Of a stretch of 44,289 nt of DNA, positions 22,476 to 44,289 are shown piece by piece. Numbering within the stretch: position 1 is the first letter of the stretch; each line of letters starts with the position of its first letter. This stretch comes from Vitreimonas sp. (GTDB taxonomy: Bacteria > Patescibacteriota > Microgenomatia > UBA1400 > PJMF01), in contig DASPLQ010000012.1 in the NCBI GenBank assembly GCA_035627515.1, positions 521,269 to 565,557 on the forward strand. Direction: 5' to 3'. The position numbers and the translations under genes are program-made. Below the pieces are notes generated by a model. That model ran no database searches. It was given only the letters and a program-made list of their open reading frames with translations, and was not told where the DNA came from.

Positions 22476-22488
22476 TACTCGTTGGTGA

Positions 22489-23147: not shown

Positions 23148-23195
23148 ACACAAAATATTGTGGTTTTACTATTTAATATACACAATATGTATTGA
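23148..23195 (+). promoter_or_regulatory. Tandem NrdR boxes
   Basis: ACACAAAATATTGTGG (23148-23163) and ACACAATATGTATTGA (23180-23195), 32 bp apart, matching acaCwAtATaTwGtg. TTGACA lies at 23097. Confidence 0.8.
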
Positions 23196-23206
23196 CTGCA
23201 GTCGTT

Positions 23207-23659: not shown

Positions 23660-23665
23660 TAGTCA

Positions 23666-23755
23666 GAGTAATTAAGTAACTGAGTAATTTAGTAATTGTT
23701 CATCTGAGGCAGCAAGGCTAACAGTGATCTCGATTACTTAATAACTTAATCACTC
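23666..23755. repeat. Octamer-periodic inverted-repeat intergenic element, copy 1
   Basis: AGTAA at 23667, 23675, 23683, 23691; a loop; then GATTACTT AATAACTT AATCACTC (23732-23755). Confidence 0.85.
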
Positions 23756-23777
23756 ACCAACTAAAACGGAGTTTTTT

Positions 23778-25988: not shown

Positions 25989-26011
25989 GCTTAATTAACA
26001 GAACAACACAA

Positions 26012-26040
26012 AAAAGGGCTCCTGGATCAGGGGCCCTTTT
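26012..26040 (+). terminator. Rho-independent terminator after nrdJ
   Basis: AAAAGGGCTCCTG-GAT-CAGGGGCCCTTTT. Confidence 0.85.
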
Positions 26041-26079
26041 GGTTGCAGAGAAGAAAGAATTAGCTCATACTGATTAAAT

Positions 26080-26970: not shown

Positions 26971-26981
26971 TTGATCAATTA

Positions 26982-28058: not shown

Positions 28059-28135
28059 AGGAAAGAAAGGTATATCAGGTATGGTATTATAGCAATCGTC
28101 CTGTAATAAAAATTTTTAAAACCTGAAATGAGCAT

Positions 28136-29041: not shown

Positions 29042-30131
29042 TCGTTAGCCGCCGCTGATCTTTTTGCAGCGCGTCACCCTCACTAAACACTACTTTTAAT
29101 CGGGGCAAGCCTTGAGCCTTGATTATGGGCATTAGCCAACTCTCCACCTGTGAAAACCACTCAATAATCACCACCGAGCGTGGTGTCAGTAACGTATCCA
29201 CCGCCAAGGCATTAAACTCAGCCTCGGTTTCTATCTTCCACAAATCAAGGTGAAAGAATTTTCCCGCCACACCATGGCGCAAAAATTCGTATTCCTCCAG
29301 ATATGTATAAGTGGGCGAAGTAACTGTCTCGGTTATCCCCAGGAACTCAGCCGCGCCTTTGGCAAAAATCGTCTTACCCATGCCCAGTGAGCCATCCAAA
29401 CCAATCACTAACCCATGAGCTTTGATCTCATTCCAGTGTTTAAGAAGCAACTTGCCAGCAATTTGTTTAGTTTCCATTTCTGACTGGGAAACAAGCTGGG
29501 TAGCCTCCGTAGCGGCTTCGGCAATGTTAGTTTCGCCTTGGCGAAACACCACCGGGGTAGAGAGCGTGGTATCAATTACTGTTGAGGGTGGGTTAGGTGG
29601 CAGTTGACCAGCATCAAGGACGAGATCGATTAAACTTTTTTGTTTTTCAGACAGACCATCAAAAATATCGGTCACAGTGTAGGGCCGTTTGGCATCGGAA
29701 GCATTGGCGGAGGTGGCGGTCATTGGTCGGCCGTAAGCCTTCACGATCTCGACCACTAACGGATAATCAGGAATTCTGACGCCCAGCGTGCCAAATTCAG
29801 ACGCCACACCCTGCGCCACGGTGCCTACACTTTTGGAGACCACGGTCACTGGTCCGGGCAGGAAACGCTCATACAACTTCCGAGCCGAATCATTAACCTC
29901 GACATACTGAGCTGCCATTGCTGGATCGGTAACCGCAATCGAGAGGGGCTTGCCTTCGCGGCGAGCCTTGTAGGCTAATAACTTATCAACTGCGGTTTGG
30001 TTTAAGGCATCGACGCCGGCGCCGTAGGTGGTTTCGGTGGGAAAAATGACTAAGCCACCCGCGCGCAGTATCGCTATGGTCTCAGCGATGACTTGATCAC
30101 GGGGGGTGGTGTGTATATCAATCTTTTTCAC
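29031..30131 (-). CDS. tsaC-tsaE: TsaC (Sua5/YrdC) - TsaE fusion protein
   Basis: N-terminal IFPTETTYG, KARREGKPL, TATSANAS; C-terminal GLDGSLGMGKT, VTSPTY, HLDLWK, IIEW. GTG 30131 preferred over ATG 30206. Confidence 0.92.
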   Translation of the reverse strand: MKKIDIHTTPRDQVIAETIAILRAGGLVIFPTETTYGAGVDALNQTAVDKLLAYKARREGKPLSIAVTDPAMAAQYVEVNDSARKLYERFLPGPVTVVSKSVGTVAQGVASEFGTLGVRIPDYPLVVEIVKAYGRPMTATSANASDAKRPYTVTDIFDGLSEKQKSLIDLVLDAGQLPPNPPSTVIDTTLSTPVVFRQGETNIAEAATEATQLVSQSEMETKQIAGKLLLKHWNEIKAHGLVIGLDGSLGMGKTIFAKGAAEFLGITETVTSPTYTYLEEYEFLRHGVAGKFFHLDLWKIETEAEFNALAVDTLLTPRSVVIIEWFSQVESWLMPIIKAQGLPRLKVVFSEGDALQKDQRRLTIKT

Positions 30132-30137
30132 CTGAGT

Positions 30138-30218
30138 ATTATACGACACATCCCCGAAAACTGCTCTGACCTTCGCCTGGAGAACATAGCTGATAAGGAT
30201 TGGCACTTCTGCTATAAT
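30138..30218. promoter_or_regulatory. Back-to-back -10 elements for probably leaderless genes
   Basis: Minus-strand TATAAT (30138-30143) is 6 nt before GTG 30131. Plus-strand TGcTATAAT (30210-30218) is 5 nt before ATG 30224. Confidence 0.6.
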
Positions 30219-30223
30219 GATCT

Positions 30224-30571
30224 ATGTCTAGTTATCGAACTTCACAGCTTATGAATCAGACTACTGATGGCTCCAATGATTCCATCAAGTTTGATCTCTA
30301 TATCAAGACTCGAGAAATCAAACAAATTGCCGAATCCTTACAACAAGTCATGTTGATGTCTAAGAAGGATCGTCAAGCTTGGGTTAAAGAACACGAACCT
30401 TTTGTCAATCAATTGCTCGATACATTTATGGAAGACGCTTCTTCCGCACTCGATGGGTTATATCTCGATAATGAAGCTTTGAAGATGTCGATGGACTTTG
30501 TGATGAACTTGCGTGATGCCATCAATACGTTACAAGGAATCTTGTACGAGCGCTCCAATTTGAAAAGTTAA
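30224..30571 (+). CDS. Hypothetical helical protein upstream of yidC
   Basis: 115-aa ORF, 5 nt before yidC. Confidence 0.7.
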   Translation: MSSYRTSQLMNQTTDGSNDSIKFDLYIKTREIKQIAESLQQVMLMSKKDRQAWVKEHEPFVNQLLDTFMEDASSALDGLYLDNEALKMSMDFVMNLRDAINTLQGILYERSNLKS

Positions 30572-30576
30572 TCATC

Positions 30577-31383
30577 ATGCCTTTAGCTGAGCTTTTTACC
30601 CTTGTTATTTACCAGCCTTTTTTTAATGTTTTGATTTTCTTTTATTGGATGTTGGGCCAAGTTAGTCCTGGTCCTGCTGACATGGGTATAGCGGTGATTT
30701 TGTTGACGATCCTGATTCGTTTTTTGCTGCTCCCCATCTCATTGATGGAAGATCGCTCGGAAGAAGAACGGCGCAACATTGCTCATCGCATCAAAGAACT
30801 GGAAGTTGAGCTGGCTCATGATCCGGTGAAGTTGCGCAGTGAAGTCAAAGCTTTGTTTAAAAGCAAACCGAGAGTTGTGGCAGGTGAGTTGTTTTCGTTG
30901 TTTATTCAAGTTTCCACCTCATTGATGTTGTGGAGAATCTTCAGCAGTGGTTTAGAAGGTCGCGATTTGCACCTGATTTATTCGTTCATGCCTCAAGTAG
31001 AATTACCGTTTAATTTAGTTTTTTTGGGCCAATTTGATTTGGCGCACACGAGCTTTTTCTTGAACTTACTCCAATCAATCCTGATTTTTGTCTTAGAAAC
31101 AATTTCGATTTATACCTCGCCGTATCCACCGGGGCAGGGTGAAGTAGTCCGGATGCAGTTGGTTTTACCAGTAGTGTCATTTGTGATTTTCATGGGTTTA
31201 CCAGCCGGGAAAAAGCTGTTTGTGATTACGGCTTTGATTTTTAGTATTGTTGTCACGATCATTAAGGCCGTGCGCCGCCGTTTTGAAGCCTATCGCATCG
31301 AGCAGGAGCTGAAAGAAGCTGAAGCAGCTGCTCTGGCTGCAGCTGGTGGAGAGTCAGAAAAGGTAGTTGTCGAGGTAAAGTAA
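30577..31383 (+). CDS. yidC: Membrane protein insertase, short YidC/Oxa1 family
   Basis: YQPFFNVL...GIAVILLTILIRFLLLP, coiled-coil hairpin and several TM helices. Confidence 0.85.
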   Translation: MPLAELFTLVIYQPFFNVLIFFYWMLGQVSPGPADMGIAVILLTILIRFLLLPISLMEDRSEEERRNIAHRIKELEVELAHDPVKLRSEVKALFKSKPRVVAGELFSLFIQVSTSLMLWRIFSSGLEGRDLHLIYSFMPQVELPFNLVFLGQFDLAHTSFFLNLLQSILIFVLETISIYTSPYPPGQGEVVRMQLVLPVVSFVIFMGLPAGKKLFVITALIFSIVVTIIKAVRRRFEAYRIEQELKEAEAAALAAAGGESEKVVVEVK

Positions 31384-31422
31384 CCTCCGCTGTTGCTTTT
31401 TTAATCTTCAGAGTACAATACT

Positions 31423-31520
31423 AAGTAAGTAATTAAGTAACTTAGTAATTGAGTAATTTGTTTTCCCAGTCAATTATTTTGTTTCTTATTTACTGAATTA
31501 CTTATTTACTGAATTACTTA
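31423..31520. repeat. Octamer-periodic inverted-repeat intergenic element, copy 2
   Basis: AGTAA at 31428, 31436, 31444, 31452; TTACT at 31490, 31498, 31506, 31514 (TATTTACTGAATTACT x2). Confidence 0.9.
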
Positions 31521-31524
31521 ATGT

Positions 31525-32139
31525 ATGGAATTTGATCGCCTGGTAGTCTCATTTTTAGTCGATGAAGTCGTGGGTGGCTTTTTTATTTCTGTTCCACCTG
31601 GGCACATTGCTTGTGTTTATGATCGTGGCAGAGGAGTGTTACCCAAAGTGTGGGGACCCGGTCTGCACTTAAAAATTCCTTTTTGGCAGGTAGCAAAGTT
31701 ATTCACGGCTCAGGTATTAGAGTACTCAATTCGTGAAGGTTTTGACACTTCTAAAAATAAAGAAGCCTTAGGTGACACACCTATTACCACCAGTACCAAA
31801 GATGGTAAAGACATCTCAGTAGAAGGATCAGTTTTATTTAGAATTGATAAGAATAATGCTCCCGAGCTCTGGGAAAACATTGGTGAAAGTGTGGTCTCCA
31901 AGGTGGTTCGGCCTTTTTCACGGAGCAGAATCTCTTCAGTTTTCTCTGAGTTAACTTTAGATCAAATTAAACAAAACCGCTCTCAAGTAGAAACGATTGT
32001 CAAAGAAGATCTCAGTCATCACTTTCAAAACCGTGGTTTAGAGTGCGAAGGTTTTTTGTTATCTGAAGTCAAAATGAGCCGTGGCGGCCGCGAAGAAACC
32101 GTGATCAGTGTCGAGCCAACACCCACCGTTACTCCTTAA
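31525..32139 (+). CDS. SPFH/band 7/prohibitin-domain protein (short, no clear TM)
   Basis: VPPGHIACVYDRGRGV...PGLHLKIPF, TKDGKDISVE.SVLFRI. Confidence 0.85.
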   Translation: MEFDRLVVSFLVDEVVGGFFISVPPGHIACVYDRGRGVLPKVWGPGLHLKIPFWQVAKLFTAQVLEYSIREGFDTSKNKEALGDTPITTSTKDGKDISVEGSVLFRIDKNNAPELWENIGESVVSKVVRPFSRSRISSVFSELTLDQIKQNRSQVETIVKEDLSHHFQNRGLECEGFLLSEVKMSRGGREETVISVEPTPTVTP

Positions 32140-32173
32140 CTTTTCTGTTATTTTATCCGCGAACTATTGAGGC

Positions 32174-33727
32174 CTACAGTAAACACGTCTCAAAGAAGTG
32201 TCCAGCCAGCAAAGTGTAATCCACAATATTCACGTTACCATCCTGGTTAATATCAGCGCGAGGTGTAGTCAGCTGGGTTTGAAAAAAGTTAGTGGCTAAA
32301 ATGGTGTAATCGACAATATTGACAGTGCCATCCTGATTGATATCAGCTGCACAGACATCACTGGGAGGTGGTGTAGGAGTCGGGCTAGGGCTGGGCGTGG
32401 GAGTAACCGATGGTGACGGTGAGGGACTGGGGGTCGGTGAAGCCACACTTCCGCCAGGAGGTGCTACTACCTGTGGTGCCGCAGGATTTTCAGTGGGACC
32501 GTACTCATGAGTCAAGCGACCATACGGTAGAGTCGAGCCACTCTTGAATGTAGTGCCAGCATCGGCTTGGGTTTTCATGACGCCCGTAGTGTAATAACGA
32601 TACGCCAGGAATAAATTGCCACGCCGCATGTCTTGCCAACTGCGAGATTTGCTGGCATCAATAGGATTTTGAATGACAAACAAAATGGCTGTGCGCAAAG
32701 AACCTTTACCAGCTACGTTATGGTCGTATAAACGAGTGTCACCCCGATGCCACAAAAACTCCGCGTGGAAAATCAACCCTTCGATAGCTAAAGCAGTGTA
32801 GCTATACGCGTCATCTTCAGAAACTAACCATTGGCCAGTACAGCCAGTATTGCCGCGGCGAAGTTCTTCAGGAAGGCCGCCGTAAGTTTGGATGCCACGA
32901 ATATCACATTGAGCATCGCCCACTAAAGTTCCAGAAATCCGATCCAGCTGAAGCTGGTTGTGTTGTTGGTAGGCTTGGGCGGGGGTTAAACTCACTGCTG
33001 AGGGTGAAACCTCACTCAAGGTGACGCTGCCCTGGCGATCAGCTAAGTAATCACCAATCATCGCTGCTGACACCGACCCAAAAACGCCCCAGTTGTTGGC
33101 ACGTTCACGACTGGCCCAGGCCACTTTTTTGTAGACATGATCGCGCAACCAATTTTGAAACTGGAGTTTATCAGCACTTGTCCAGACTTCAGACTCTTCC
33201 AGTAAGTCAGCAGATTGGATCCAGAGTGGGATAGCAAATGCGAGCTTTAAAATACACTCATTGTTGCCCGAATACGTTTCTCCACCAAAGGTGTGAGTAT
33301 CAGTCAAATCTAAGATTTTTTCCCGAGCCGCAGCGGCGTAGGCTACGTTGCCGGTCAAATGATAAGCCAATACTTTGTCATAGACGAGTGTCCCGCCATC
33401 CTCTGGTGCCAAAAAGTTGTCGGCGCTAAAGTTGCTCGGTGAGAAACACTCGCCACTGCCAGAGACGTTAAACTCACCACTGACGCTGCCATAAGACCAA
33501 TGATCAGCCGGCTCCAACCGGTCCATGAAGTCGGCGACGTTTTGTTGGTAGGGTTGTTGATTCTGACTAGCTTTAGTTTTGATAGCTGATAACTCGGTGG
33601 GAGAGGTAATATAGCCACGGGAGTTTAAGCCGGTAGCGGCTTGGATTGGTACTGGTCTTGACCAGAACCAGCTGATACCACTTATCACTGTCAGGGACAA
33701 TAAAAGGTAAGTTACAATTTTGCGCAC
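32174..33727 (-). CDS. Secreted alginate-lyase-like (alpha/alpha toroid) protein with Pro/Thr linker and C-terminal dockerin
   Basis: Signal peptide; RANNW, EELRR and YSY motifs; (SP/TP)n linker; two Ca-binding repeats ADINQDGxVNIVDY. Confidence 0.7.
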   Translation of the reverse strand: MRKIVTYLLLSLTVISGISWFWSRPVPIQAATGLNSRGYITSPTELSAIKTKASQNQQPYQQNVADFMDRLEPADHWSYGSVSGEFNVSGSGECFSPSNFSADNFLAPEDGGTLVYDKVLAYHLTGNVAYAAAAREKILDLTDTHTFGGETYSGNNECILKLAFAIPLWIQSADLLEESEVWTSADKLQFQNWLRDHVYKKVAWASRERANNWGVFGSVSAAMIGDYLADRQGSVTLSEVSPSAVSLTPAQAYQQHNQLQLDRISGTLVGDAQCDIRGIQTYGGLPEELRRGNTGCTGQWLVSEDDAYSYTALAIEGLIFHAEFLWHRGDTRLYDHNVAGKGSLRTAILFVIQNPIDASKSRSWQDMRRGNLFLAYRYYTTGVMKTQADAGTTFKSGSTLPYGRLTHEYGPTENPAAPQVVAPPGGSVASPTPSPSPSPSVTPTPSPSPTPTPPPSDVCAADINQDGTVNIVDYTILATNFFQTQLTTPRADINQDGNVNIVDYTLLAGHFFETCLL

Positions 33728-33926
33728 AGCTTATTCTATCAAATATATCAAAAGATATCATTTTCTTGCTTTTTTCTTACTCAATTGTAGTTTTTTGTGT
33801 AGATCTGCGGCGTATAGTAAGAACTATTATCATTTACGGAGGTTTGTATGTGTGTTCGCATTAGCTATCGCAAAAAGCTACTCAACATTTAAGTGCTTAA
33901 CTTAACCGTGATGTCAGGAATGTATC

Positions 33927-35228
33927 ATGCATGTGGTTTTTATGTCTCCGCACTCAGATCCTGAGGCTCATCTTGGTGAACCTGATTCAGGGGGTCAGTG
34001 TATTTATGAACAACAACTAGGCAAAGCGTTGACGCGTCAGTTCGATGACATCGATGTGACGATTTTTTGTCGTGACACCAAGCGCCGTCCTCGCCACACC
34101 TGGCTCAGTGATCGTTGCCAGGTGATTCGGATTGAGTGTGGCGCCACCGACTATATTCCTAAAGAACACATTGAAGCAGCGCTCCCTAAGTTTGTGCACC
34201 AAGTGGTGCGCTTTTTACCTTTTCAAGAATCGGTAGTGGTGCATGGTCATTATTGGGATGGCGGCAAAGCCAGTTTACAACTGAAGCGGCTATTGCCTAA
34301 GCCGATGCCGTTGGTCTGGACACCTCACTCTCTAGGTAGTTTGAAAAGACAAAACTTCAAAGGTCTCAATCACGAAGTGGAGTATAACTTTATTCCTCGG
34401 ATCACGTGGGAAAATTACACTGCATTTTCTGCTGAATCGGTGATCGTTTCGAGTGTCCAAGAAAAAAAAGTGCTGACCGATGAGTACTTACTCAAACCCA
34501 CCAAAGTAGAAATTATTCCTCCTGGGATTGATTTAGAACAACTACAACCCATCAATCAACGTGATGCCCGTCAAAAGTATCACTTACCGGAAGATGGCAA
34601 GGTTATTTTGTGTCTGGGTCGGATGACGCCTGCCAAAGGGTATGAGCACGCCATCCATGGTTTAGCGAGTTTATTACAAAAATATACTGAGCCAGTTTAT
34701 TTGGTGATTTGTGGCGGTTCAGCTGACAACCAAACACTAGAAGAAAAGAAGTACTATGATTCTTTAGTCGAAATAGTTAAGGATTTAAGGCTACAAAAGC
34801 AAGTCATCTTTCTCTCGGCTGTGCCTCACGATGAAATTAACGAGTTGTATAGTGCAGCTGATATTTTTGTCTTACCTTCTGAACACGAGCCATTTGGACT
34901 AGTAGCATTGGAAGCTATGGCGTGTGGAGTGCCACTGGTGGCAGCCAATACGGGTGGTTTAGCTAGCTCACTCCAACACAACCTGCATGCGTGTTTAGTT
35001 AATATTCATAACTCTGAGCGGTTGTCATATTACTTCTTATCGTTACTCAAAGATACTCAATTTCGTCACAAATTAATTCGCAATGGCCAGAACTTAGTTA
35101 AAGAAAGTTATGGATGGGATGCCCGGGCTACCGAGTTTGCCCAAGTGTATCGTCAGGTACTGTCTAAGCCGTCACCCTTTTTTCATACTTGGGTTAATAA
35201 TAACTATTTTTTGAATGCCAACGTCTGA
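33927..35228 (+). CDS. GT4 glycosyltransferase, sucrose-phosphate-synthase-like
   Basis: SPHSDP...DSGGQCIY, HGHYWDGG, TPHSLG and EPFGLVALEAMACG. Confidence 0.85.
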   Translation: MHVVFMSPHSDPEAHLGEPDSGGQCIYEQQLGKALTRQFDDIDVTIFCRDTKRRPRHTWLSDRCQVIRIECGATDYIPKEHIEAALPKFVHQVVRFLPFQESVVVHGHYWDGGKASLQLKRLLPKPMPLVWTPHSLGSLKRQNFKGLNHEVEYNFIPRITWENYTAFSAESVIVSSVQEKKVLTDEYLLKPTKVEIIPPGIDLEQLQPINQRDARQKYHLPEDGKVILCLGRMTPAKGYEHAIHGLASLLQKYTEPVYLVICGGSADNQTLEEKKYYDSLVEIVKDLRLQKQVIFLSAVPHDEINELYSAADIFVLPSEHEPFGLVALEAMACGVPLVAANTGGLASSLQHNLHACLVNIHNSERLSYYFLSLLKDTQFRHKLIRNGQNLVKESYGWDARATEFAQVYRQVLSKPSPFFHTWVNNNYFLNANV

Positions 35229-37003
35229 TGTTTTACTACATTAAAGAAAATTATTACTTCGATATTGATCTATATCACCAATTTCGGATTACGGGGCCGG
35301 CTAATCATTTGTTGCTCGGTTTAAGTTTGCCTAAAGGCGTACCATTGGAGGTCAAAGAGTATTATATCGAGAATGAGCAGCTAGTCGTAAAGTTAGAGCT
35401 ATTGGCTGATCAATTACAACTCCCCTTGCCACTGGTGACTGATATTAGAACTTTGCGGGCTTTGACCGAGCCAAAGACGCCGCGTCCTACCTATCAAGAA
35501 CTACTGCTGCAATCACCTGAGTTAGTCAAACCGCGCACTATTACCCAACGTCAAGATGATGAGTTTCAAGTTATTACCTTTACCAATCAGTATCAAGAGC
35601 TTGATAAACCATTGACGTATGGTTCTGAGTTGTGGTTACCAAAAGAGTATTGGGTAGAGCTGAGTGAAACGCAGTTGCAGATCAAAGCCGAAAGTCCTTT
35701 GGTGCTGTGTATCAAAACTCAAAACAATGTTACTTCCAAAGCACCAGCTACTAAACAGTTGTTCAAAGAAGCAACTCAGTTGCCTGAAAACATGTTTAGT
35801 CAAAAATTAATTAAGCTCTATACCGATGCTTATCAGCACATTGAACATTTGATCAAAGCCCAAAAAACCAGCAGCTTTGAGTATGGCACCGTTTTCCCAC
35901 GGGATTGGATTGAGTCAGCTGATTTGGGGAGTACAGAACTGACGCAGGATACCATTGATTACATGTACTCACAGGCGATGGAGTTTGTCTCTGATGATGG
36001 GGAAGGGTGGCACGAGAATATCGTGGGGGAGTTCAAACACAAAAATGCTGACGAATCGACGCATATTGATCGTAAAATGATTGATATTGAACCACGGTAC
36101 ATCATGGGTGTGAGGCGGGTGAGTAAAAAATTTTTAACCGATCCTGAGCATCATCGCCGATTAAAATTGATAGCGAAATTTATTTTGAAAAATGCAGCTG
36201 AGTGTCACCAAATCTCCTTCAAGAAACGGAGGGATTCTGAAGAATATGAAGTGGTTGGCAATTGGCGAGATAGTTACTATGGTTACCCACGTCATAAAGC
36301 ACCACTCTCTCCATACGATGTTAACTGCGTTTTTTATCCGATTAGTTTAAAAATTATCCAAGAGTTCGCTGATTATTTTGAGATTGAAGATAAAGAACAC
36401 TTGGCTACCTTAATTAAAAAATGGGATGAGCAAAAAGTTCGCTTTCGTTTGTATCATGACGATAATTTAATCGGTTATTCTTTAGCCCTCCATGGCAAGA
36501 AACGTTTGCCGCTGCCAATTGCGCACCTCGATGAAAGTTATGATTTGTTTTATGGTTCACCCAGCATGGAAGAGATTGTCAGCTTTGCCCAAAAAATCAC
36601 CAGTCCGCACTTTTTTTATAGTCCTAGCGGTCCATTGTTAGTGGACATTGATGATGACTTTTTTACCACCGAACACTATCACGGTAAAGTCATTTGGCCC
36701 AAACAAGCTGCGTTTTCTATAGCGGGGTTAGCGCGACAGTTGCAACGTGGTCATCAAGAATTATGGCCGCGGGCAGTTTTGGAAACTATTCAGGAAAGTA
36801 TTATCACTACGGCTCAGGCTTGTTTCCGGGCTTGGGAACAGTTGGAAGCGATTCCGGAGCTTTATTATCATGATTTTATGGAGAACCGAGCCCGGTTATA
36901 CACCGATCAAGCACAGATTGAAGGTCAGATGAGCTTGATTCAATTATGGTCTGCCGTCGGAGGACGGCGAATTATGCAGGAATATGTAAAAGTAATTGAG
37001 TAA
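35228..37003 (+). CDS. (alpha/alpha)6 glycoside hydrolase, amylo-alpha-1,6-glucosidase/GDE-like
   Basis: YGTVFPRD, NWRDS, YDVN, HLDES and YHGKVIWP motifs; start overlaps the GT4 stop (TGATG). Confidence 0.65.
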   Translation: MFYYIKENYYFDIDLYHQFRITGPANHLLLGLSLPKGVPLEVKEYYIENEQLVVKLELLADQLQLPLPLVTDIRTLRALTEPKTPRPTYQELLLQSPELVKPRTITQRQDDEFQVITFTNQYQELDKPLTYGSELWLPKEYWVELSETQLQIKAESPLVLCIKTQNNVTSKAPATKQLFKEATQLPENMFSQKLIKLYTDAYQHIEHLIKAQKTSSFEYGTVFPRDWIESADLGSTELTQDTIDYMYSQAMEFVSDDGEGWHENIVGEFKHKNADESTHIDRKMIDIEPRYIMGVRRVSKKFLTDPEHHRRLKLIAKFILKNAAECHQISFKKRRDSEEYEVVGNWRDSYYGYPRHKAPLSPYDVNCVFYPISLKIIQEFADYFEIEDKEHLATLIKKWDEQKVRFRLYHDDNLIGYSLALHGKKRLPLPIAHLDESYDLFYGSPSMEEIVSFAQKITSPHFFYSPSGPLLVDIDDDFFTTEHYHGKVIWPKQAAFSIAGLARQLQRGHQELWPRAVLETIQESIITTAQACFRAWEQLEAIPELYYHDFMENRARLYTDQAQIEGQMSLIQLWSAVGGRRIMQEYVKVIE

Positions 37004-37066
37004 TTAAGTAAACTGCGCAACAACAAGCAACTCAATTACTTAGTTACTTAACTACTAATTTACTTA
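36990..37066. repeat. Octamer-periodic inverted-repeat intergenic element, copy 3
   Basis: AGTAA at 36991, 36999, 37007; TTACT/CTACT at 37036, 37044, 37052, 37060. Confidence 0.9.
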
Positions 37067-37081
37067 AACTGGAGATTATCT

Positions 37082-38125
37082 ATGCGCATTGTCCAAGTTG
37101 CCCCTCTCGAAGAATCAGTCCCGCCCAAAAAATATGGTGGCACAGAATTGGTGATTCATAATGTCACCGAAGAATTAGTCAAAAAAGGCCATGAGGTGTA
37201 CTTGTTAGGAGCTGGTGATTCAGAGACAAGTGCCCACTTGATTCCCATTCTGCCTCAGTCATTGCGGAAGATGTACTCGCCGGAAGAAATTGATACTTGG
37301 CGGGACTTTTTAAAGATATTTCATATCTCCACGATCTTAAAAACGATCCGTGACCTTAAACCCGACATCGTCCATAATCACTACGCGTGGCGTTTGATTC
37401 AGTTTTTAGATTTTATTGATTGTCCTGTCTACAGCACCATGCATGGGCCACTAACTAAAATTCAAGAACGTTATGTGTATCAGCAGTACCCGGAAGCCAA
37501 TTATATTTCTATTTCTAATAATCAGCGCAAAGCACTCCCTGAGTTGAATTGGGTTAAGACGATTTACAACGGGATTGAGGTCGAAAAATTTGAACTCGGC
37601 ACTGGTCAGCGAGATTACTTTGTGTTTTTAGGCCGCACGACGCCAGATAAAGGTCTGAAAGAAATTATTCACATGATAAAAAAGACGTCGCACCAATTAA
37701 AGATAGCTGCAAAGGTCGACACCACTGATCAGGCCTATTTTGAACAAGAAATTAAACCTTTTATTGATGGCCAGCAAATTGAGTTTTTGGGTGAAGTCGA
37801 TCACGCTGGCAAAGTAGCGCTGCTCAAAAAAGCGAAAGCGTTGTTATTATGGCTGAATTGGGAAGAGCCCTTTGGTTTGGTCGTCACTGAAGCCATGGCG
37901 TGCGGTACGCCGGTGATTGTTAATCGTCGTGGCTCAATGCCTGAGCTGATCATAGAAGGACAAACAGGATTTTTGGTCAACACTATTGAAGAGATGGCCG
38001 CACAGTTGGACAACACTGACCGCGTTTCCCCCCAGGACTGCCGGGCCCATGTAGAAGCCAACTTTTCAGCGGCAAAAATGGCTGATGAGTACTTAGAGTT
38101 AGCGGGCAAATTGACTGGGAGCTAA
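37082..38125 (+). CDS. GT4 glycosyltransferase
   Basis: PPKKYGGTE, DIVHNH and WEEPFGLVVTEAMACGTPVI. Confidence 0.92.
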   Translation: MRIVQVAPLEESVPPKKYGGTELVIHNVTEELVKKGHEVYLLGAGDSETSAHLIPILPQSLRKMYSPEEIDTWRDFLKIFHISTILKTIRDLKPDIVHNHYAWRLIQFLDFIDCPVYSTMHGPLTKIQERYVYQQYPEANYISISNNQRKALPELNWVKTIYNGIEVEKFELGTGQRDYFVFLGRTTPDKGLKEIIHMIKKTSHQLKIAAKVDTTDQAYFEQEIKPFIDGQQIEFLGEVDHAGKVALLKKAKALLLWLNWEEPFGLVVTEAMACGTPVIVNRRGSMPELIIEGQTGFLVNTIEEMAAQLDNTDRVSPQDCRAHVEANFSAAKMADEYLELAGKLTGS

Positions 38126-38129
38126 GACC

Positions 38130-38765
38130 ATGACGTCACCAAAAGGAATTGCACTCGATATTGACGATACCTTGTGTGATACCGCCCGGGTGGTAATGAA
38201 AACGTTGGCACAGGAATTTCCCCAGCTGGCCAGCGAAGCGATCGAAGATTTGTTGGCTAAATACCAACAACCTGAGAAAGTGCCCACCTGGCAAATGAAT
38301 GAAGTTCATGATCGGCGCTGGAAGCTTTTGACTACCGAAGAGTTTATGTACAACCTGCCCCCCATACCCGGAGCCCAAGCAGGGGTGGCTCGCTTGGCGC
38401 AACACCTACCTATTCGCTGTTATATCTCGTCACGATTGGATCACTTGACCTCAGTCTCGCGGCGGTGGTTACGGGCTCACGGTTTTCCCGACGCGCCTCT
38501 CTTTTTGCGTCACCCTGACCAGCTGGCAGTGGATTGGAAACTGCCGCACCTGGCAGAAATGGGAGATGTATGTGGCTTAGTAGATGATAATCTGGGAGCA
38601 ATGGAAATTGATGCTCAACAATGGCCTTTTACCTTATATTGGTACAATCCTTACCGAGTGCCGGCGATGGTTTCCGGACTGGTGCCTTTTTATTCCTGGG
38701 CAGATTTCACCCTCTTACATCCCGATAACTCCAAGACCCCAGTTGACAAAAAATTAGCAGTCTAA
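38130..38765 (+). CDS. HAD-superfamily phosphatase (NT5C/YqfW-like)
   Basis: IALDIDDTLCD motif I, PPIPGA, ISSR and LVDD motif IV. Confidence 0.8.
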   Translation: MTSPKGIALDIDDTLCDTARVVMKTLAQEFPQLASEAIEDLLAKYQQPEKVPTWQMNEVHDRRWKLLTTEEFMYNLPPIPGAQAGVARLAQHLPIRCYISSRLDHLTSVSRRWLRAHGFPDAPLFLRHPDQLAVDWKLPHLAEMGDVCGLVDDNLGAMEIDAQQWPFTLYWYNPYRVPAMVSGLVPFYSWADFTLLHPDNSKTPVDKKLAV

Positions 38766-38771
38766 TACCAT
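38743..38771 (+). promoter_or_regulatory. groE sigma70 promoter
   Basis: TTGACA-N17-TACCAT. Confidence 0.8.
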
Positions 38772-38812
38772 ATCTGCTAGTGAAGGTAGCAGAGTTCTGA
38801 TACTGCTGCTAA
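38754..38812 (+). promoter_or_regulatory. Tandem CIRCE-like (HrcA) operators
   Basis: TTAGCA-N15-TGCTAG (38754-38780) and GTAGCA-N15-TGCTAA (38786-38812), 32 bp apart. Confidence 0.75.
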
Positions 38813-38876
38813 CAAAAAGTACTCTATTAATCGCCAAGCTTAGCTTGGCTCATTACACCTTATCAAGGAGGTATTT

Positions 38877-39182
38877 ATGGCAGAGAATTTTTCTGTCGCG
38901 AACATTAAGCCTTTACCCGGCTACATTTTGGTGGAACCAGCTCAAGGTCAAAAGCAAACTGCATCTGGGATTTATTTACCCGACTCACACGAAGAGAAGC
39001 CACAACACGGCACGGTCTTAGCCGTCGGTGACGCCACGGTTGAAGAGGGTAAAGAAGTGAAATGCCCTGTCAAAGTCAAAGATCACGTCATTTACAAAAA
39101 ATGGGGTGGAAATGAGTTTAAAGTGGGAGAGATTGAGTACCAAATCCTCAAGTTCGAGGATGTATTAGCGCAAGTTAAATAA
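38877..39182 (+). CDS. groES: Co-chaperonin GroES
   Basis: IKPL...ASGIYLPD...EKPQHGTVLAVG; GGAGG RBS. Confidence 0.97.
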   Translation: MAENFSVANIKPLPGYILVEPAQGQKQTASGIYLPDSHEEKPQHGTVLAVGDATVEEGKEVKCPVKVKDHVIYKKWGGNEFKVGEIEYQILKFEDVLAQVK

Positions 39183-39258
39183 TTAAGTAAATTAGTAACT
39201 AGTAACTAAGTAATTAAGCAACGAGAACTTCACAATTACTCAATGACTCAATTACTTA
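39177..39258. repeat. Octamer-periodic inverted-repeat intergenic element, copy 4
   Basis: AGTAA at 39186, 39194, 39201, 39209 (AGCAA at 39217); TTACT/TGACT at 39236, 39244, 39252. Confidence 0.88.
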
Positions 39259-39266
39259 CCAACTAG

Positions 39267-40907
<1,641 letters not shown>

Positions 40908-40973
40908 GCGAACCTGAGCGAGAGCGAAGGGAGCACTTTCTTCGTAAATGCCAACAGGCTTAGTAAAAAACTT

Positions 40974-40999
40974 AAAGCGGGTCGAAAGGCCCGCTTTTT
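40974..40999 (+). terminator. Rho-independent terminator of groESL
   Basis: AAAGCGGGTC-GAAA-GGCCCGCTTTTT. Confidence 0.9.
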
Positions 41000-41024
41000 G
41001 GTGGTACGATGAATAGGCTTCGTT

Positions 41025-42296
41025 ATGTTTAAACGGATCCTACCTTTTGATTTACCACGCTTTAGTAAAACTTCACCTCAGTTGTTATTCGTGGCGGCCT
41101 TATTTTTAGTGATGTTGGTAGAGAACTCACTGGCTTTTGTGTTTCCAATTGTCACCGAGATCACTGTTAACTCCACCACAATGGTGGGCTTAATCATGGC
41201 TAGTTCATCAGTAGTATCGCTGATTTTAGATTTTGCTCTCCCTAAACTGCTTAAAGATAAAACCTGGAAATTTCAATTTTTAAGTGCGGCGATAATTGCC
41301 TGTTTCTTTCCCATTTTTACCGCGCTCGGTAAAGCTTTTTCCGTAGCCGCCTTTTTTGTGTTGGGCAGTATGGTGTGGGGTATTTATTTTGAGTTGCTGG
41401 CTTTTGCCCAGCAAAACTTTATCGCAACAGAAGAAAAGAAAATCTACTTTAGTCGGGACTGGGGTATTATTTATTTAATTAGAGCCTTGGCCTGTATTGT
41501 AGGGCCAATTTTAGGGGCTCAGTTATTAGCCGGCTCGAGTTGGAACTTAGCGATTACCTATTTGGTGCTGCAAGGTGTGGGGATTATGCTGGCAATCATT
41601 GGGATGACGTTTGCACCTACGCATCGAGTCACTCGCCGCCGGGGAGAGATTCAGCGCGTCATCAGTTTCATTAAAGAAGTTTCAGTGTGGCGGATTTTTT
41701 TCAGTCATATTTTACCGGTGATTATGATGGGGATTATGGTCAGTATCATCGATGCTTTGTATTGGGTGCTGGGAGGGTTGTTTAGTCAGACAATTCCGGA
41801 GCTAGTGGAGCTGGAGTGGGTGCCAATTGTGTTATACGCTGTGCCGATGATGGTTGGCTCATTATTTGTTTCCCGCCTTAATATTCATGTTCATAAAAAG
41901 CGTTATTCTCAGCTCGCTTTGATAGCCGGCGGAGCTTTACTGTTGCCCCTGATGCTGATGGCTGAAAATGTGATTGCCATTGTAGGAATTATGCTCATTT
42001 CTAGTTTGTTGTTCTCATTAATGGGGCCGCTCAATGATGCAGTTTTCACCGACCTCCAAGCACGGGCAGGGGAGTATGGCCAAGATTTAGTGGGTTTAAA
42101 TAAAATGACTAACTCCATTGCCTACATCGTGACACCCATTTTGGTGGGACTCATTTCTGATTATTGGGGCTTTGCCGTCAGTTTCACGGTGGTTGGAGCG
42201 GTAGCGATTGTGGTGGGAGTGGTGTTGTTATTATTAACACCCCGGAAATTGCTCGTGCCGCATGCGGAGTTGGAGAGTGTGGAGATTGATTCCTAG
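41025..42296 (+). CDS. MFS transporter
   Basis: About 12 hydrophobic segments in two halves; 423 aa. Confidence 0.85.
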   Translation: MFKRILPFDLPRFSKTSPQLLFVAALFLVMLVENSLAFVFPIVTEITVNSTTMVGLIMASSSVVSLILDFALPKLLKDKTWKFQFLSAAIIACFFPIFTALGKAFSVAAFFVLGSMVWGIYFELLAFAQQNFIATEEKKIYFSRDWGIIYLIRALACIVGPILGAQLLAGSSWNLAITYLVLQGVGIMLAIIGMTFAPTHRVTRRRGEIQRVISFIKEVSVWRIFFSHILPVIMMGIMVSIIDALYWVLGGLFSQTIPELVELEWVPIVLYAVPMMVGSLFVSRLNIHVHKKRYSQLALIAGGALLLPLMLMAENVIAIVGIMLISSLLFSLMGPLNDAVFTDLQARAGEYGQDLVGLNKMTNSIAYIVTPILVGLISDYWGFAVSFTVVGAVAIVVGVVLLLLTPRKLLVPHAELESVEIDS

Positions 42297-42316
42297 CGTA
42301 AAGCGTAAATAGCCAG

Positions 42317-42325
42317 TGGTATAAT
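42317..42325 (+). promoter_or_regulatory. Extended -10 promoter
   Basis: TGgTATAAT, 22 nt before ATG 42348. Confidence 0.6.
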
Positions 42326-42347
42326 CCCAGCTCAGACAGAGCTGCAT

Positions 42348-43466
42348 ATGCCGAACTTAACTGAGTCTGAGATTATAGCCTCCCGACATCTTTTTAATTT
42401 TACTGATGGACATAGCCGTCGGCCGTTTTCTGCACCCGAGTATCAAGTCTTATTAAAAGCAGCTGAATTTTTGCAGGAACCCATTGAAACCGTTGGGGTC
42501 TTAGCGGATCGTTTTGTAGCGGCGTTCTATGAATTAGCTCAGCAGAGTTTTGACCTCAATCAGGATAATTATTTATTATTTCCTAGTGCGTCATTGGCTA
42601 CGGATGTGGTCGCACAGTTATTAACTCACTATGGCCACACGCAAATAGCGGTAATTGAACCGTGTTTTGATAATCTGCCGGATTTGTTAAAGCTCAAGGG
42701 TTTAACAGTAGTACCGATTGGTGAAAATGAGTTGGGTTCTCAGGTTGATATCACCACTCATCCTGCCACTGCACTATTGTTAGTAGATCCCAATAATCCC
42801 ACCGGTTTTATGTTTAATGAAACCCAATTTCGAGCCATAGTGGAGCAGTGTGTGAAGAGCAATAAAACGTTAGTGCTCGATGCCACGTTTCGTTTTTATA
42901 AGTCACCAGCCGACAGTTTTGATCAATTAGCGATTTTAAAAGCAGCTGGAGCGGAGTACATCATAATTGAAGATACGGGTAAGACCTGGCCTAGTCAGGA
43001 ACAAAAAATTTCTATTTTGACCTATTCGCCACATTTTGCAGCACATTTTTACAAGTTATATACCATTTATTATTTATCACCTTCACCGGCAGCCTTACAG
43101 TTGTTGACTGGATATGTCCAAGCCACTGCTGCCGATAACTTTGACCACTTGCATTCACTGATCATTCATAATCGTCGCTTTATAGCTGAGGCTATTAAGG
43201 GGACGGGTATTCAGATGGCGGAAGCAGAGTTGATGCCAGTATGTTGGTTGCGGTTACCAGACCATGTTTCAGCTTGCAGCTTTGTTGATGAGCTAGAAAA
43301 CGTGCAGCCCTCAATTCGTATTTTAGAAGGTCAACCTTTTTTCTGGTCAGATGAAACCGGTGAAAAAGGAGCCCAGTATGTGCGGATCGCCTTATCAAGG
43401 AACCCACACTTAGTGATGGTAGCTGCTGAGAAAATAAAAGAGGTGGCGCGGCGATTGAAAATGTAG
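42348..43466 (+). CDS. Fold-type I PLP enzyme, MppP/RohP/Ind4-like (arginine oxidase family)
   Basis: NLTESE, NFTDGHSR, EPCFDNLPDLL, PNNPTG, LDATFR, IEDTGK212TWP, HNR, FFW...VRIALSR, collinear with the MppP sequence as I recall it. Confidence 0.75.
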   Translation: MPNLTESEIIASRHLFNFTDGHSRRPFSAPEYQVLLKAAEFLQEPIETVGVLADRFVAAFYELAQQSFDLNQDNYLLFPSASLATDVVAQLLTHYGHTQIAVIEPCFDNLPDLLKLKGLTVVPIGENELGSQVDITTHPATALLLVDPNNPTGFMFNETQFRAIVEQCVKSNKTLVLDATFRFYKSPADSFDQLAILKAAGAEYIIIEDTGKTWPSQEQKISILTYSPHFAAHFYKLYTIYYLSPSPAALQLLTGYVQATAADNFDHLHSLIIHNRRFIAEAIKGTGIQMAEAELMPVCWLRLPDHVSACSFVDELENVQPSIRILEGQPFFWSDETGEKGAQYVRIALSRNPHLVMVAAEKIKEVARRLKM

Positions 43467-43537
43467 CAAGAGTGGGATTCGAACCCACGACCTTCGGTTT
43501 ATGAATCCGATGCTCTAACCAACTGAGCTATCTTGCC
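43464..43537 (-). tRNA. tRNA with CAT anticodon, probably elongator Met (Ile2 not excluded)
   Basis: GGCAAGA-TAGCTCAGTTGGTTAGAGC-A-TCGGA-TTCATAA-ACCGA-AGGTC-GTGGG-TTCGAAT-CCCAC-TCTTGCT-A. G2-C71, C3-G70 and A73 fit Met. No encoded CCA. Confidence 0.9.
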
Positions 43538-43556
43538 AAGATCTGTCGAACTACCG

Positions 43557-43600
43557 ATTATAGCAAAACTTTTGACATTTGAGGATAAGTTCGTTAGAAT
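43557..43600. promoter_or_regulatory. Divergent tRNA promoters
   Basis: Plus strand: TTGACA-N17-TAGAAT (43572-43600). Minus strand: TGcTATAAT (43557-43565). Confidence 0.75.
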
Positions 43601-43673
43601 AAGGATCTTCTTTAACAAAGATTTGTCCGATTTCTTTATTGTAAAGGAAACTCTGCTGGTCAGAGGGACATCG

Positions 43674-43742
43674 CGCGGGTTAGTGTACGGTGCACGTGAG
43701 GCTCATAATCTCGCAGGCTGGGTCCGACTCCCAGACCCGCAA
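43674..43742 (+). tRNA. Initiator-type tRNA-Met(CAT), unconventional
   Basis: CGCGGGT...ACCCGCA-A with C1:A72 mismatch; anticodon arm TGAGG-CTCATAA-TCTCG; T arm CTGGG-TCCGACT-CCCAG; 69 nt. Confidence 0.8.
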
Positions 43743-44186
43743 CAATCTGGGAATGGCTGGTTGCAAATAGACATTAAGGTCTGATGCACCAGCCATTTTC
43801 GTAGGTTCGATCGAAACTTGAACCGTTCCAACTTCCGCCTTTGCTTTTTCAATCATCCAAAAAGGATTATCATGATCCACCACCACTTTTTTGTTATACA
43901 ACTTTAGGTTCTGACCGAGTAATTGGAGTATCTGTGTTTTTGTTTTGACGTCACCTTTAGCAAACCAGTATCGAGCATAGGAAGCAAATTCAAAGGTTTT
44001 TTTTGAGAGTTCCAACCAATCGTATTGTTTTTGATCGGTGACTTCCATCACGCCTTTAACGGTTTCGATTTCTTTTTGTACTCGTTGCAATACAGCAAGG
44101 GGATCATCAAATGACATGGATTTGCTCAGAGTTGCTGTTAAGTCGACATCCCTTATAGGTGCAGGAGTAGGTAAGTTAGCAGGCAT
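43680..44186 (-). pseudogene. C-terminal fragment of a CPR-type large serine recombinase reading into the tRNA (att site)
   Basis: WLELSKKTFEFASYARYWFAKGDVKTKTQILQLLGQNL...EPTK...LLRVWES (antisense of the tRNA T arm). No catalytic N-terminal domain. Has its own AAGGA RBS. Confidence 0.6.
43752..43799 (+). terminator. Long hairpin/terminator after the initiator tRNA
   Basis: AATGGCTGG-t-TGCA..AGAC-ATTAAG-GTCT..TGCA-CCAGCCATT followed by TT. Confidence 0.65.
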
Positions 44187-44289
44187 AGGTATCCTTTAAC
44201 GTATGATTAGCAGTTTGGAGGCTTTGTCTCCAAGTTAAGTAATCTGATTTACTTGGAATATCTACATTTAGATCTGGAAAAATGAATAA

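Follow-up and report, generated by a model that had tools for sequence, protein, structure and literature searches.

The second of two co-oriented genes at 41025 to 43466 of the window analyzed here, a stretch of 44,289 nucleotides from a soil metagenome, raises the question of what use a CPR bacterium may make of an enzyme family associated with antibiotic biosynthesis. To our knowledge, the characterized O2- and PLP-dependent arginine oxidases (MppP, RohP, MilM, Ind4, and Plu4) all start antibiotic pathways in large-genome producers. MppP of Streptomyces wadayamensis (PDB 5DJ1) is the first enzyme of L-enduracididine biosynthesis; RohP of Streptomyces cattleya (azomycin; PDB 6C3A) and MilM (mildiomycin) are O2- and PLP-dependent L-arginine 4-hydroxylases, and Plu4 of Pseudoalteromonas luteoviolacea (PDB 7N79, 7RF9, and 7RGB) and Ind4 are O2- and PLP-dependent L-arginine desaturases of indolmycin biosynthesis. 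Judged by its translation, the gene considered here, from a CPR genome of 1.4 Mb, appears to encode a catalytically intact member of this family, and no pathway partners accompany it within the window. A literature search found no paper tying Patescibacteria to enduracididine or to MppP-type enzymes.

Membership in the arginine oxidase family

The ORF at 42348 to 43466 (plus strand, 372 aa) encodes a divergent member of the O2- and PLP-dependent L-arginine oxidase family that includes MppP, RohP, MilM, Ind4, and Plu4. An earlier note on this DNA had called the product an MppP/RohP-type enzyme, and that call is borne out by phmmer, NCBIfam, Foldseek searches with the AlphaFold (AF2) model, and trees. 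In phmmer searches against the PDB, the best match is Plu4 (7N79; E value, 2.7e-51), followed by RohP (6C3A; 1.3e-47) and MppP (5DJ1; 6.6e-42). The first match outside the family is an LL-DAP aminotransferase at 1.7e-7, so that the individual family members lead it by 35 to 44 orders of magnitude. The best NCBIfam model for the ORF is TIGR04462 (endura_MppP; 5.7e-38).

Pfam assigns the protein to Aminotran_1_2 alone, and the database names of its homologs are “aspartate/methionine/tyrosine aminotransferase,” as might be expected if it were an ordinary aminotransferase of class I, of the aspartate or LL-DAP type, that merely resembles MppP. That reading is contradicted by phmmer, Foldseek, and the tree, and we consider it extremely improbable. 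The top 23 Foldseek matches in the PDB are all Plu4, RohP, or MppP structures (TM score, 0.86 to 0.93; root mean square deviation [rmsd], 1.7 to 2.1 Å); GntC and ordinary aminotransferases follow at an E value of 1e-17 and a TM score of <0.81, after a 16-order gap in E value; from the last family structure to the first ordinary one, the gap is about 12 orders of magnitude. The protein also carries the family-specific N-terminal lid (NLTxxE...DGH). In the tree, the family is split from two class-I aminotransferase outgroups, which lie about 6 substitutions per site away, by a branch with support of 100/99. Clustering with ordinary aminotransferases, the outcome that the earlier note had set against its own call, was not seen, and the protein stays inside the arginine oxidase family.

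Within the family, the protein lies outside the MppP, RohP, and Plu4/Ind4 clades, so that “MppP/RohP-like” is right at the family level and should not be read as orthology. MppP sensu stricto is defined by the TIGR04462 equivalog cutoff of 450 bits, whereas the protein scores 131 bits and is 29% identical to SwMppP. It falls inside a 37-row clade (UFboot, 100; SH-aLRT, 97), where it forms a long branch (0.95 to 1.67 substitutions per site) at the base of this uncharacterized group. Its identity to any database sequence is at most 38%, and it is a singleton at the 50% clustering level. Because of the long branch, the low identity, and a clade whose function is predicted, its substrate or reaction outcome could have shifted.

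The same clade includes a syntenically conserved group from Saccharimonadales (e.g., GCA_964557915.1 and GCA_035479515.1). These homologs are likewise from CPR genomes but are only 32 to 37% identical to the oxidase, compared with 46 to 87% among themselves. In an AU test, a single CPR group comprising the query and the Saccharimonadales sequences is not rejected (P = 0.47); the base of the clade is poorly resolved.

Active-site residues and structure model

As a member of the L-arginine oxidase family, the oxidase is a PLP enzyme of fold type I; it is cytoplasmic, with no signal peptide visible at its N terminus (MPNLTESEII...). The AF2 model has a pLDDT of 95 and a pTM of 0.93; it places a helix, the lid, at residues 4 to 11, and the mean pLDDT over the first ten residues is 84.

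The motifs quoted in the earlier note are all present, namely, N3-L4-T5-E6-S7-E8 (NLTxxE), D20-G21-H22, and E208-D209-T210-G211-K212-T213-W214-P215, and HMMER alignments pair them with T12, E15, D27, H29, and K221 of MppP. All of the family-invariant columns are kept (T5, E8, D20, H22, S82, F107, N109, N150, D178, F181, D209, K212, K220, S246, and R346). K212, within EDTGK, corresponds to the Schiff-base Lys of MppP (K221), RohP (K235), and MilM (K232), in a column that is invariant across 165 family sequences. H22 lies in the D-G/A-H motif near the N terminus and matches MppP H29 and MilM H31.

The residues described for MilM as catalytic, PLP binding, or substrate binding are K232, H31, S92, F116, N164, D195, K240, T14, E17, N118, and R364 (bioRxiv 10.64898/2026.02.25.707955). 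The PLP-binding set is kept in invariant columns of the oxidase as S82, F107, N150, D178, and K220 (MilM Ser92, Phe116, Asn164, Asp195, and Lys240). The substrate-binding set is kept as T5 and E8 (MppP T12/E15 and MilM T14/E17) together with N109 and R346 (MilM Asn118 and Arg364). Likewise, T12, E15, D27, H29, S91, F115, N160, D188, F191, D218, K221, and R352 of MppP all have counterparts in the oxidase, and the invariant active-site residues of Plu4 are all shared with it.

At the position of the partner-protomer Tyr that contacts PLP (MilM Y89, MppP Y88, and RohP Y112 in PDB-chain numbering), the oxidase has Pro79. Pro is also found there in Plu4 (P85) and in 82% of the Plu4 clade; since that clade mostly has Pro, the Tyr marks the hydroxylase clades and not the whole family. 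Three clade-discriminating columns are mixed in the oxidase: with P79 it resembles Plu4, whereas with D112 and N275, where the Plu4 clade has L and R, it resembles the hydroxylases. Plu4 is the best structural match as well as the best sequence match (TM score, 0.93; rmsd, 1.9 Å) but is 31 to 33% identical and belongs to a different, well-supported clade. RohP is as close in fold (TM score, 0.93; rmsd, 1.7 to 1.8 Å), but RohP and MilM are about 32% identical to the oxidase and also fall in a separate clade. The choice between hydroxylase and desaturase outcomes has been ascribed to active-site dynamics (PMC12464687). For enzymologists, a compact and very divergent protein that mixes “hydroxylase” and “desaturase” markers would be useful for learning how the reaction outcome is determined.

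If the chemistry follows that of the relatives with solved structures, L-Arg would take the place of Lys212 on PLP, with the lid helix (Thr5 and Glu8) at the N terminus closing over the guanidinium group and Arg346 holding the carboxylate. Quinonoid intermediates, aided by His22, would then reduce O2 to H2O2. Consumption of one O2 would yield 2-ketoarginine and ammonia, and consumption of two would yield 4-hydroxy-2-ketoarginine or 4,5-didehydroarginine as the four-electron product; the sequence does not decide between them.

The same data bear on whether the enzyme has diverged in substrate or reaction. It might act on homoarginine, canavanine, or peptide- or nucleoside-bound arginine, might carry out a two-electron oxidation alone, or might be mainly a transaminase or lyase. 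Its long branch and low identity to any known sequence, its place in an uncharacterized clade of very diverse gene neighborhoods, the Tyr-to-Pro79 change, and the mixed marker columns all leave room for such a shift. However, the guanidinium- and carboxylate-binding residues and the oxidase-linked His are all conserved, and the lid helix is modeled with confidence. We regard a shift of this kind as unlikely.

The gene pair and its surroundings

The MFS transporter gene (41025 to 42296, plus strand; 423 aa) and the oxidase gene form a cassette. The slot that it fills, bounded by groEL and tRNA-Met, is variable and holds other genes in close relatives. A GC-rich hairpin with T/A runs on either side (40974 to 40997), 3′ of the groEL stop codon (40907), marks the left edge of the cassette; the site scan reports it as terminator-like on the minus strand, and its plus-strand T run overlaps the stem. 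The right edge of the slot is a tRNA-Met (CAT) gene found by ARAGORN (43463 to 43537, minus strand) that abuts the oxidase stop codon. In relative L012, whose GroEL is 85% identical, a 281-aa ORF and a Cu-oxidase_4 gene lie between groEL and the same tRNA-Met, and the slot ends in the same pair of tRNA-Met (minus strand) and initiator-like tRNA-Met (plus strand). In relative L011 (GroEL, 87% identical), a Kbl/BioF-like gene follows groEL; this aminotransferase-fold gene was considered as a counterpart of the oxidase and rejected, as it is of the Kbl/BioF type and unrelated to the query. The GC content (0.43 to 0.44) and GC3 (0.40 to 0.49) of the gene pair are inside the range of the neighboring genes. 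If the oxidase gene were a relic of horizontal transfer, its significance would be a modest correction of annotation, from “aspartate aminotransferase” to “arginine oxidase family.”

Two promoter-like elements are found on the plus strand. TGgTACGAT (41002 to 41010), 15 nt upstream of the MFS start, is a possible extended −10-like element that matches TATAAT at 4 of 6 positions and is absent from the promoter scan list; as the −10 of the MFS gene, it would imply a very short leader. TGgTATAAT (42317 to 42325), in the 51-bp spacer between the two genes, is an extended −10 located 22 nt upstream of the oxidase ATG. The two-hexamer promoter scan does not list it because it has no −35 match. The claim that the oxidase gene has its own extended −10 promoter holds for the element itself, but a good −35 is missing and, as the site scan found no terminator-like site in the 51-bp gap 3′ of the MFS stop codon, the two genes may also be transcribed together.

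The transporter belongs to MFS_1 (Pfam E value, 2.6e-14), which is the sole family reported even at an E value of 10, and its hydropathy profile has about 12 hydrophobic segments, consistent with a 12-TM protein. It has no NCBIfam match and no PDB sequence match, and a word-indexed search of 5.8 billion proteins returned the query itself alone. Close database relatives were found for neither gene of the pair. The MFS gene adjoins the oxidase gene as the earlier note had reported, but linkage in relatives, which it had proposed to look for, was not found: tblastn (E value, 1e-4) detected no similar MFS gene beside 90 related oxidase loci. Adjacency is what suggests a functional link between the two proteins, and the promoter-like element of the oxidase gene itself counts against such a link.

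A Pfam scan covered 37 of the larger ORFs in the window (45 ORFs are at least 100 aa long; SPFH, groES, groEL, and shadow ORFs were left out) and confirmed that pathway partners are absent from this set. No acetoacetate-decarboxylase-like MppR, no second aminotransferase (MppQ), and no NRPS were found among the 37, in contrast to the MppP pathway. Nor did they include an aldolase or N-oxygenase, as would be expected for RohP-type partners (RohR aldolase, RohQ cyclase, and RohS N-oxygenase); the window likewise has no nucleoside-antibiotic genes, and no indolmycin-type partner genes accompany the oxidase as they do Plu4 and Ind4. Among the genes of the window is also one for a class II ribonucleotide reductase, which is O2 independent.

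Gene neighborhoods across the clade are very diverse; a Pandoraea member, for example, has an HMGL-like aldolase gene next door. The Saccharimonadales homologs resemble the oxidase in having no biosynthetic-cluster partners but differ in having no MFS neighbor. Their context consists of an Exo_endo_phos gene upstream, a convergent TrmB-family regulator gene, a 91-aa ORF, and a gene for a FAD-linked oxidase. In one Saccharimonadales relative, genes for an amino-acid permease and an Ldh_2/FAD-linked 2-hydroxyacid dehydrogenase lie a few genes from the homolog. That related copies keep the same chromosomal setting from one soil Saccharimonadales genome to another suggests a role for the family outside classical secondary metabolism. 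The presence of such an enzyme had been described as unexpected in a presumed fermentative organism with a minimal genome; that surprise is softened by the soil origin of the genome and by the retention of a homolog, in a conserved context, by another CPR lineage, the Saccharimonadales of soil.

Possible roles of the oxidase

The reading that we favor, to which we give an even chance, is that of a stand-alone oxidase making a low-flux oxidized guanidino keto acid, or the guanidinobutyrate form that arises from it by spontaneous decarboxylation with H2O2, that is transported (and maybe exported) by the MFS protein. This role appears the most likely because the clade is uncharacterized, the gene lies in a cassette with an orphan MFS gene, and no tailoring enzymes are encoded nearby. 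The neighboring MFS protein would move the arginine-derived compound across the membrane. In the characterized systems, MilM has a kcat of 5.6 per min, O2 is converted to H2O2 at 1:1, the Km for O2 in the family is ~15 µM, and the keto-acid products lose CO2 spontaneously in the presence of H2O2 (PMC12464687). If the oxidase behaves like these relatives, its slow turnover would suit biosynthesis better than a bulk function. Of the roles suggested in the earlier note, the same comparison would argue against the H2O2 weapon, O2 scavenging, and bulk arginine catabolism and leave the making of a small molecule at low flux as the more plausible.

A catabolic or nitrogen-scavenging role, in which host or soil arginine would be deaminated for ammonia and the MFS protein would act as an importer, has a low probability in our estimation. 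The resulting 2-ketoarginine, or the 4-guanidinobutyrate formed by H2O2-driven decarboxylation, would be passed on, for example, to a 2-oxoacid:ferredoxin oxidoreductase or a guanidinobutyrase. Such a role would be consistent with an enzyme found alone with a transporter, with tailoring genes absent from the window, and with the spontaneous loss of CO2 from the keto-acid products, and the permease and 2-hydroxyacid dehydrogenase genes near the homolog in one Saccharimonadales relative also point in this direction. However, the few turnovers per minute of the characterized members would serve catabolism poorly and the reaction yields no ATP, H2O2 made in the cytoplasm would be costly, and the downstream enzyme is absent from the window. 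In addition, bacteria seldom use MFS proteins to import amino acids.

The stoichiometry and the Km for O2 of the family, together with the soil habitat, are compatible with the use of H2O2 as a weapon against a host or competitors or with the removal of O2 to protect an oxygen-sensitive cell, and the class II ribonucleotide reductase hints at an anaerobic-type core metabolism. We nevertheless consider such functions quite improbable, given the very slow turnover of the family. Without a visible signal peptide, the enzyme would release H2O2 into the producer's own cytoplasm, and no peroxide-handling gene adjoins it. Amino-acid oxidases dedicated to H2O2 production, moreover, are flavoenzymes or quinoenzymes, most of them secreted.

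A broader extension of the low-flux biosynthetic role, which we put forward as a conjecture of low probability, is that the clade holding the oxidase and the Saccharimonadales genes represents a non-antibiotic use of the family, in which stand-alone enzymes of ultrasmall CPR episymbionts in oxic soils turn host arginine into an oxidized guanidino keto or hydroxy acid. This compound would be exported as a signal, act as an antimetabolite, or be handed to the metabolism of the host, and in this genome a novel type of MFS protein would have been recruited for the purpose. If so, these would be the first members of the family outside a biosynthetic gene cluster, and the reaction would be a rare O2-consuming step in CPR metabolism. 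Some CPR bacteria may run a direct, O2-consuming, and H2O2-forming reaction on arginine. The importance of arginine to the relations between Saccharibacteria and their hosts is already known from the arginine deiminase system, which is unrelated (PMC8764695).

Sparse signal for the locus, of which DNA carry-over could be the source, is present in a soil metatranscriptome from another study. Five short exact contigs were found over the ~40 kb compared (positions 20000 to 24299 were left out). Three are scattered over the window's first 20 kb, and groESL has none. The remaining two fall in the gene pair, each with 0 mismatches: a 200-nt contig in the MFS gene (41769 to 41968) and a 203-nt contig in the oxidase gene (42858 to 43060).

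Family assignment, active site, and predicted chemistry

The 372-aa oxidase (42348-43466, +) is an intact member of the arginine oxidase family whose catalytic and arginine-binding machinery is complete. Its best matches among PDB sequences are Plu4 (7N79; 2.7e-51), RohP (6C3A; 1.3e-47), and MppP (5DJ1; 6.6e-42), in alignments that each span nearly the full length, and the next match is an LL-diaminopimelate aminotransferase (1.7e-7). Pfam assigns Aminotran_1_2 only, and the top NCBIfam model is TIGR04462 (endura_MppP; 5.7e-38), whose equivalog cutoff is 450 bits; with a score of 131 bits, the protein is not an MppP ortholog. When an AlphaFold2 model derived from an alignment of 70 sequences (mean pLDDT, 95; pTM, 0.93) was compared with the PDB using Foldseek, the first 23 matches were Plu4, RohP, and MppP chains, with TM scores of 0.86 to 0.93 and rmsd values of 1.7 to 2.1 Å apart from a single MppP chain at 4.3 Å. 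GntC and ordinary aminotransferases come after these chains (E ~1e-17; TM, <0.81). This search also confirmed the depositors' name for 7N79, "O2-, PLP-dependent desaturase Plu4."

Among 165 aligned family sequences, the oxidase retains every column that is at least 90% conserved and bears a residue: T5, E8, N17, D20, H22, S82, P105, F107, D108, N109, P148-G153, D178, F181, E208-K212, K220, S246, L326, F331, W333, R346, and L349. The numbering recovers the published MppP K221/H29/R352 and RohP K235, which validates the mapping. The NLTxxE, DGH (His22), and EDTGK212xWP motifs reported in the earlier note are all present. For MilM, K232 and H31 are reported as catalytic, S92, F116, N164, D195, and K240 as PLP binding, and T14, E17, N118, and R364, with T259/S260 of the partner chain, as substrate binding (bioRxiv 10.64898/2026.02.25.707955). 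The conserved positions of the oxidase correspond to the reported MilM residues with the sole exception of MilM Tyr89 (MppP Y88), where the oxidase has Pro79; this proline is also found in Plu4 (P85) and in most of the Plu4 clade. In the family alignment, the Plu4 clade differs from the two hydroxylase clades at three columns, where the oxidase is mixed, with P79 being Plu4-like and D112 and N275 being hydroxylase-like. Since the outcome of hydroxylation versus desaturation has been ascribed to active-site dynamics (PMC12464687), these markers do not lead us to predict a particular four-electron product.

Oxidation of L-Arg with O2 is the established chemistry of the family (PMC12464687, PMC7497351), and by analogy the oxidase probably carries it out as well. 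L-Arg would form an external aldimine, and the quinonoids would reduce O2 to H2O2 at a 1:1 ratio. Use of one O2 would give 2-ketoarginine and NH3, and use of two would give 4-hydroxy-2-ketoarginine or didehydroarginine; spontaneous decarboxylation of the keto acids with H2O2 would then yield guanidinobutyrates. Characterized family enzymes perform a few turnovers per minute, as in MilM, with a kcat of 5.6 per min and a Km for O2 of ~15 µM (PMC12464687), and no signal peptide is visible at the N terminus of the oxidase. Together, these observations make bulk catabolism, O2 scavenging, and an H2O2 weapon, all of which had been proposed, less likely, and we infer that low-flux production of a guanidino metabolite is the more likely role. 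For activity on L-Arg with O2 and this role taken together, we consider the chances evenly balanced.

Position in the family and neighborhoods of relatives

The oxidase adds a new and highly divergent member to a known enzyme family and is unusual in its host and context. Its best homolog among 5.8 billion clustered proteins is 38% identical, and the oxidase stands as a singleton when 1.84 billion representatives at 50% identity are scanned exhaustively with HMMER, with only 212 clusters at E ≤ 1e-30. A motif-based search through 185,579 species, each represented by one genome, gave 337 family loci, and the best 80 of these include neither a close ortholog nor any of the near relatives.

Two trees were built, a quick one with 165 rows and a careful one with 88 (LG+C20 PMSF, ultrafast bootstrap, two ordinary aminotransferases as the outgroup), and both place the oxidase inside a clade of 37 to 41 rows (UFboot, 100; SH-aLRT, 97 to 99), with MppP, RohP, and Plu4 each in a different supported clade. 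The outgroup sequences lie ~6 substitutions per site away, so the oxidase does not cluster with ordinary aspartate aminotransferases, the outcome that had been named as contrary to the family reading. That family-level reading is supported. Within its clade, the oxidase forms a long branch at the poorly resolved base; an AU test does not reject a single group of the oxidase and the Saccharimonadales (P = 0.47). The clade includes a 17-sequence Saccharimonadales group, MAGs of Chloroflexota, Acidobacteriota, and Bdellovibrionota, a MAG labeled Woesearchaeota, Frankia, one Streptomyces, and Pandoraea. The clade member on the contig binned as "Candidatus Woesearchaeota archaeon" (L097, 4194-5243) groups with a Dehalococcoidia sequence adjoining the Saccharimonadales group, and this contig is either mis-binned or the result of transfer into a DPANN archaeon.

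Among the Saccharimonadales-type contigs L001 to L010 and L171, at least seven distinct ones have a common block around the oxidase homolog (10001-11200 in L001 to L010), in the order Pyr_redox_2(-), BrkB(-), Exo_endo_phos(+), oxidase homolog(+), TrmB-family regulator(-), 91-aa ORF(+), and FAD_binding_4/FAD-oxidase_C(+). Some blocks have an inserted methyltransferase, Ldh_2, or amino acid permease (AA_permease_2) gene. The convergent TrmB-family gene, which overlaps the 3' end of the homolog or is separated from it by only a few bases, is retained even where the upstream genes vary. These homologs are 46 to 87% identical to one another, a pattern resembling prolonged vertical inheritance in a non-cluster setting on the chromosome; with the conserved block, it suggests that the homolog has a chromosomal role linked to the regulator in this CPR order.

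Other clade members have quite different neighbors: an aminotransferase and a P450 in Anaerolineae, an ACT-domain protein and an aminotransferase in Bdellovibrionota, an integrase in Dehalococcoidia, and a methyltransferase on one further contig. No relative of the window's MFS gene was found beside other clade members. In Pandoraea nosoerga (L138, 6838-11118), the clade member lies between genes for a TauD/GBBH-like Fe(II)/2OG dioxygenase and an HMGL-like aldolase, in a tightly packed trio of the same orientation. This arrangement resembles the "hydroxylate then retro-aldol" logic of RohP-RohR, a hint that 4-hydroxy-2-ketoarginine is the product in at least some of the clade.

The MFS-oxidase pair and its genomic setting

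The gene pair, motifs, and family recognized in the earlier note are all confirmed. The MFS gene (41025-42296, +) encodes a 423-aa membrane protein with ~12 hydrophobic segments and is in the same orientation as the oxidase gene. It is matched by generic MFS_1 alone in Pfam (2.6e-14) and by nothing in NCBIfam or among PDB sequences, and it retrieved only itself in a word-indexed search of 5.8 billion proteins. A GC-rich hairpin (40974-40997) lies 3' of the groEL stop, and the MFS and oxidase genes are separated by 51 bp that contain TGgTATAAT (42317-42325), with no -35 element and no terminator. The base composition of the locus is unremarkable. The oxidase stop codon abuts a tRNA-Met gene (43463-43537, -), which is followed by an initiator-like tRNA-Met gene (43674-43743). 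On the strand opposite the latter, the last 21 codons of a 168-aa ORF (43680-44186, -) with no Pfam or NCBIfam match overlap it; similarity of this ORF to BroJett032 is confined to the overlapping tail, and its called end may therefore be an artifact.

Pfam scans covered 37 of the window's larger ORFs. Apart from the RHS toxin and its immunity-gene array described below, the products recognized are a class A PBP, a giant L,D-transpeptidase/M23 protein, YidC, NrdR with a class II ribonucleotide reductase, TsaD, Sua5-TsaE, an alginate-lyase-like protein with dockerin, and a GT4/HAD sugar operon whose 591-aa middle ORF has no Pfam match. None of the 37 ORFs in the 44-kb window is MppR-, MppQ-, RohQ/R/S-, or NRPS-like, which upholds the earlier statement that such partners are absent, and the oxidase stands alone within 44 kb. 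The orphan MFS protein is its sole candidate partner, perhaps as an exporter, on the basis of adjacency.

GroEL matches were used to check the CPR/Patescibacteria placement of the genome; the nearest are a MAG (L011; 87% identity), "Patescibacteria group bacterium BroJett032" (L012; 85%), a "Microgenomates group" MAG (L014; 72%), and Saccharibacteria (L016; 61%). groEL itself, which with SPFH and groES was outside the Pfam scan, was identified by its 85 to 87% identical relatives, and SPFH and groES were identified by synteny with L012. L012 keeps the order yidC-SPFH-groES-groEL ... tRNA-Met(-) ... tRNA-Met(+). When the window (40908-43537) is compared with L012 (7624-9354) and L011 (6168-7049), the groEL-tRNA interval of L012 holds a 281-aa ORF and a Cu-oxidase_4 (YfiH/PgeF-like) gene in place of the pair, and in L011 a Kbl/BioF-type alpha-oxoamine synthase gene is directly 3' of groEL. 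The pair is thus the occupant of a variable slot beside a tRNA gene.

The sequence is present at 100% identity in a soil metagenome. This soil origin and the conserved homologs in another CPR lineage temper the earlier view that the enzyme is unexpected in a presumed fermentative minimal-genome organism. In one soil metatranscriptome of another study, an exact contig of 200 nt (41769-41968) lies inside the MFS gene and one of 203 nt (42858-43060) inside the oxidase gene, and only three more short contigs identical to the window (2130-2312, 12406-12563, and 18320-18481) were found within positions 1-19999 and 24300-44289, with none over groESL. These five contigs show the presence of the same strain at a second sampling and are compatible with transcription; they are too sparse to indicate specific or coupled expression of the pair, and DNA carry-over is possible.

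Elsewhere in the window (9230-21096), a 2,524-aa RHS-repeat protein with 15 RHS repeats and DUF6531 precedes eight small ORFs of low GC content, which show matches to Imm26, DUF4259, DUF2489, Imm40, and DUF4304; this region is an RHS toxin locus with a poly-immunity gene array.
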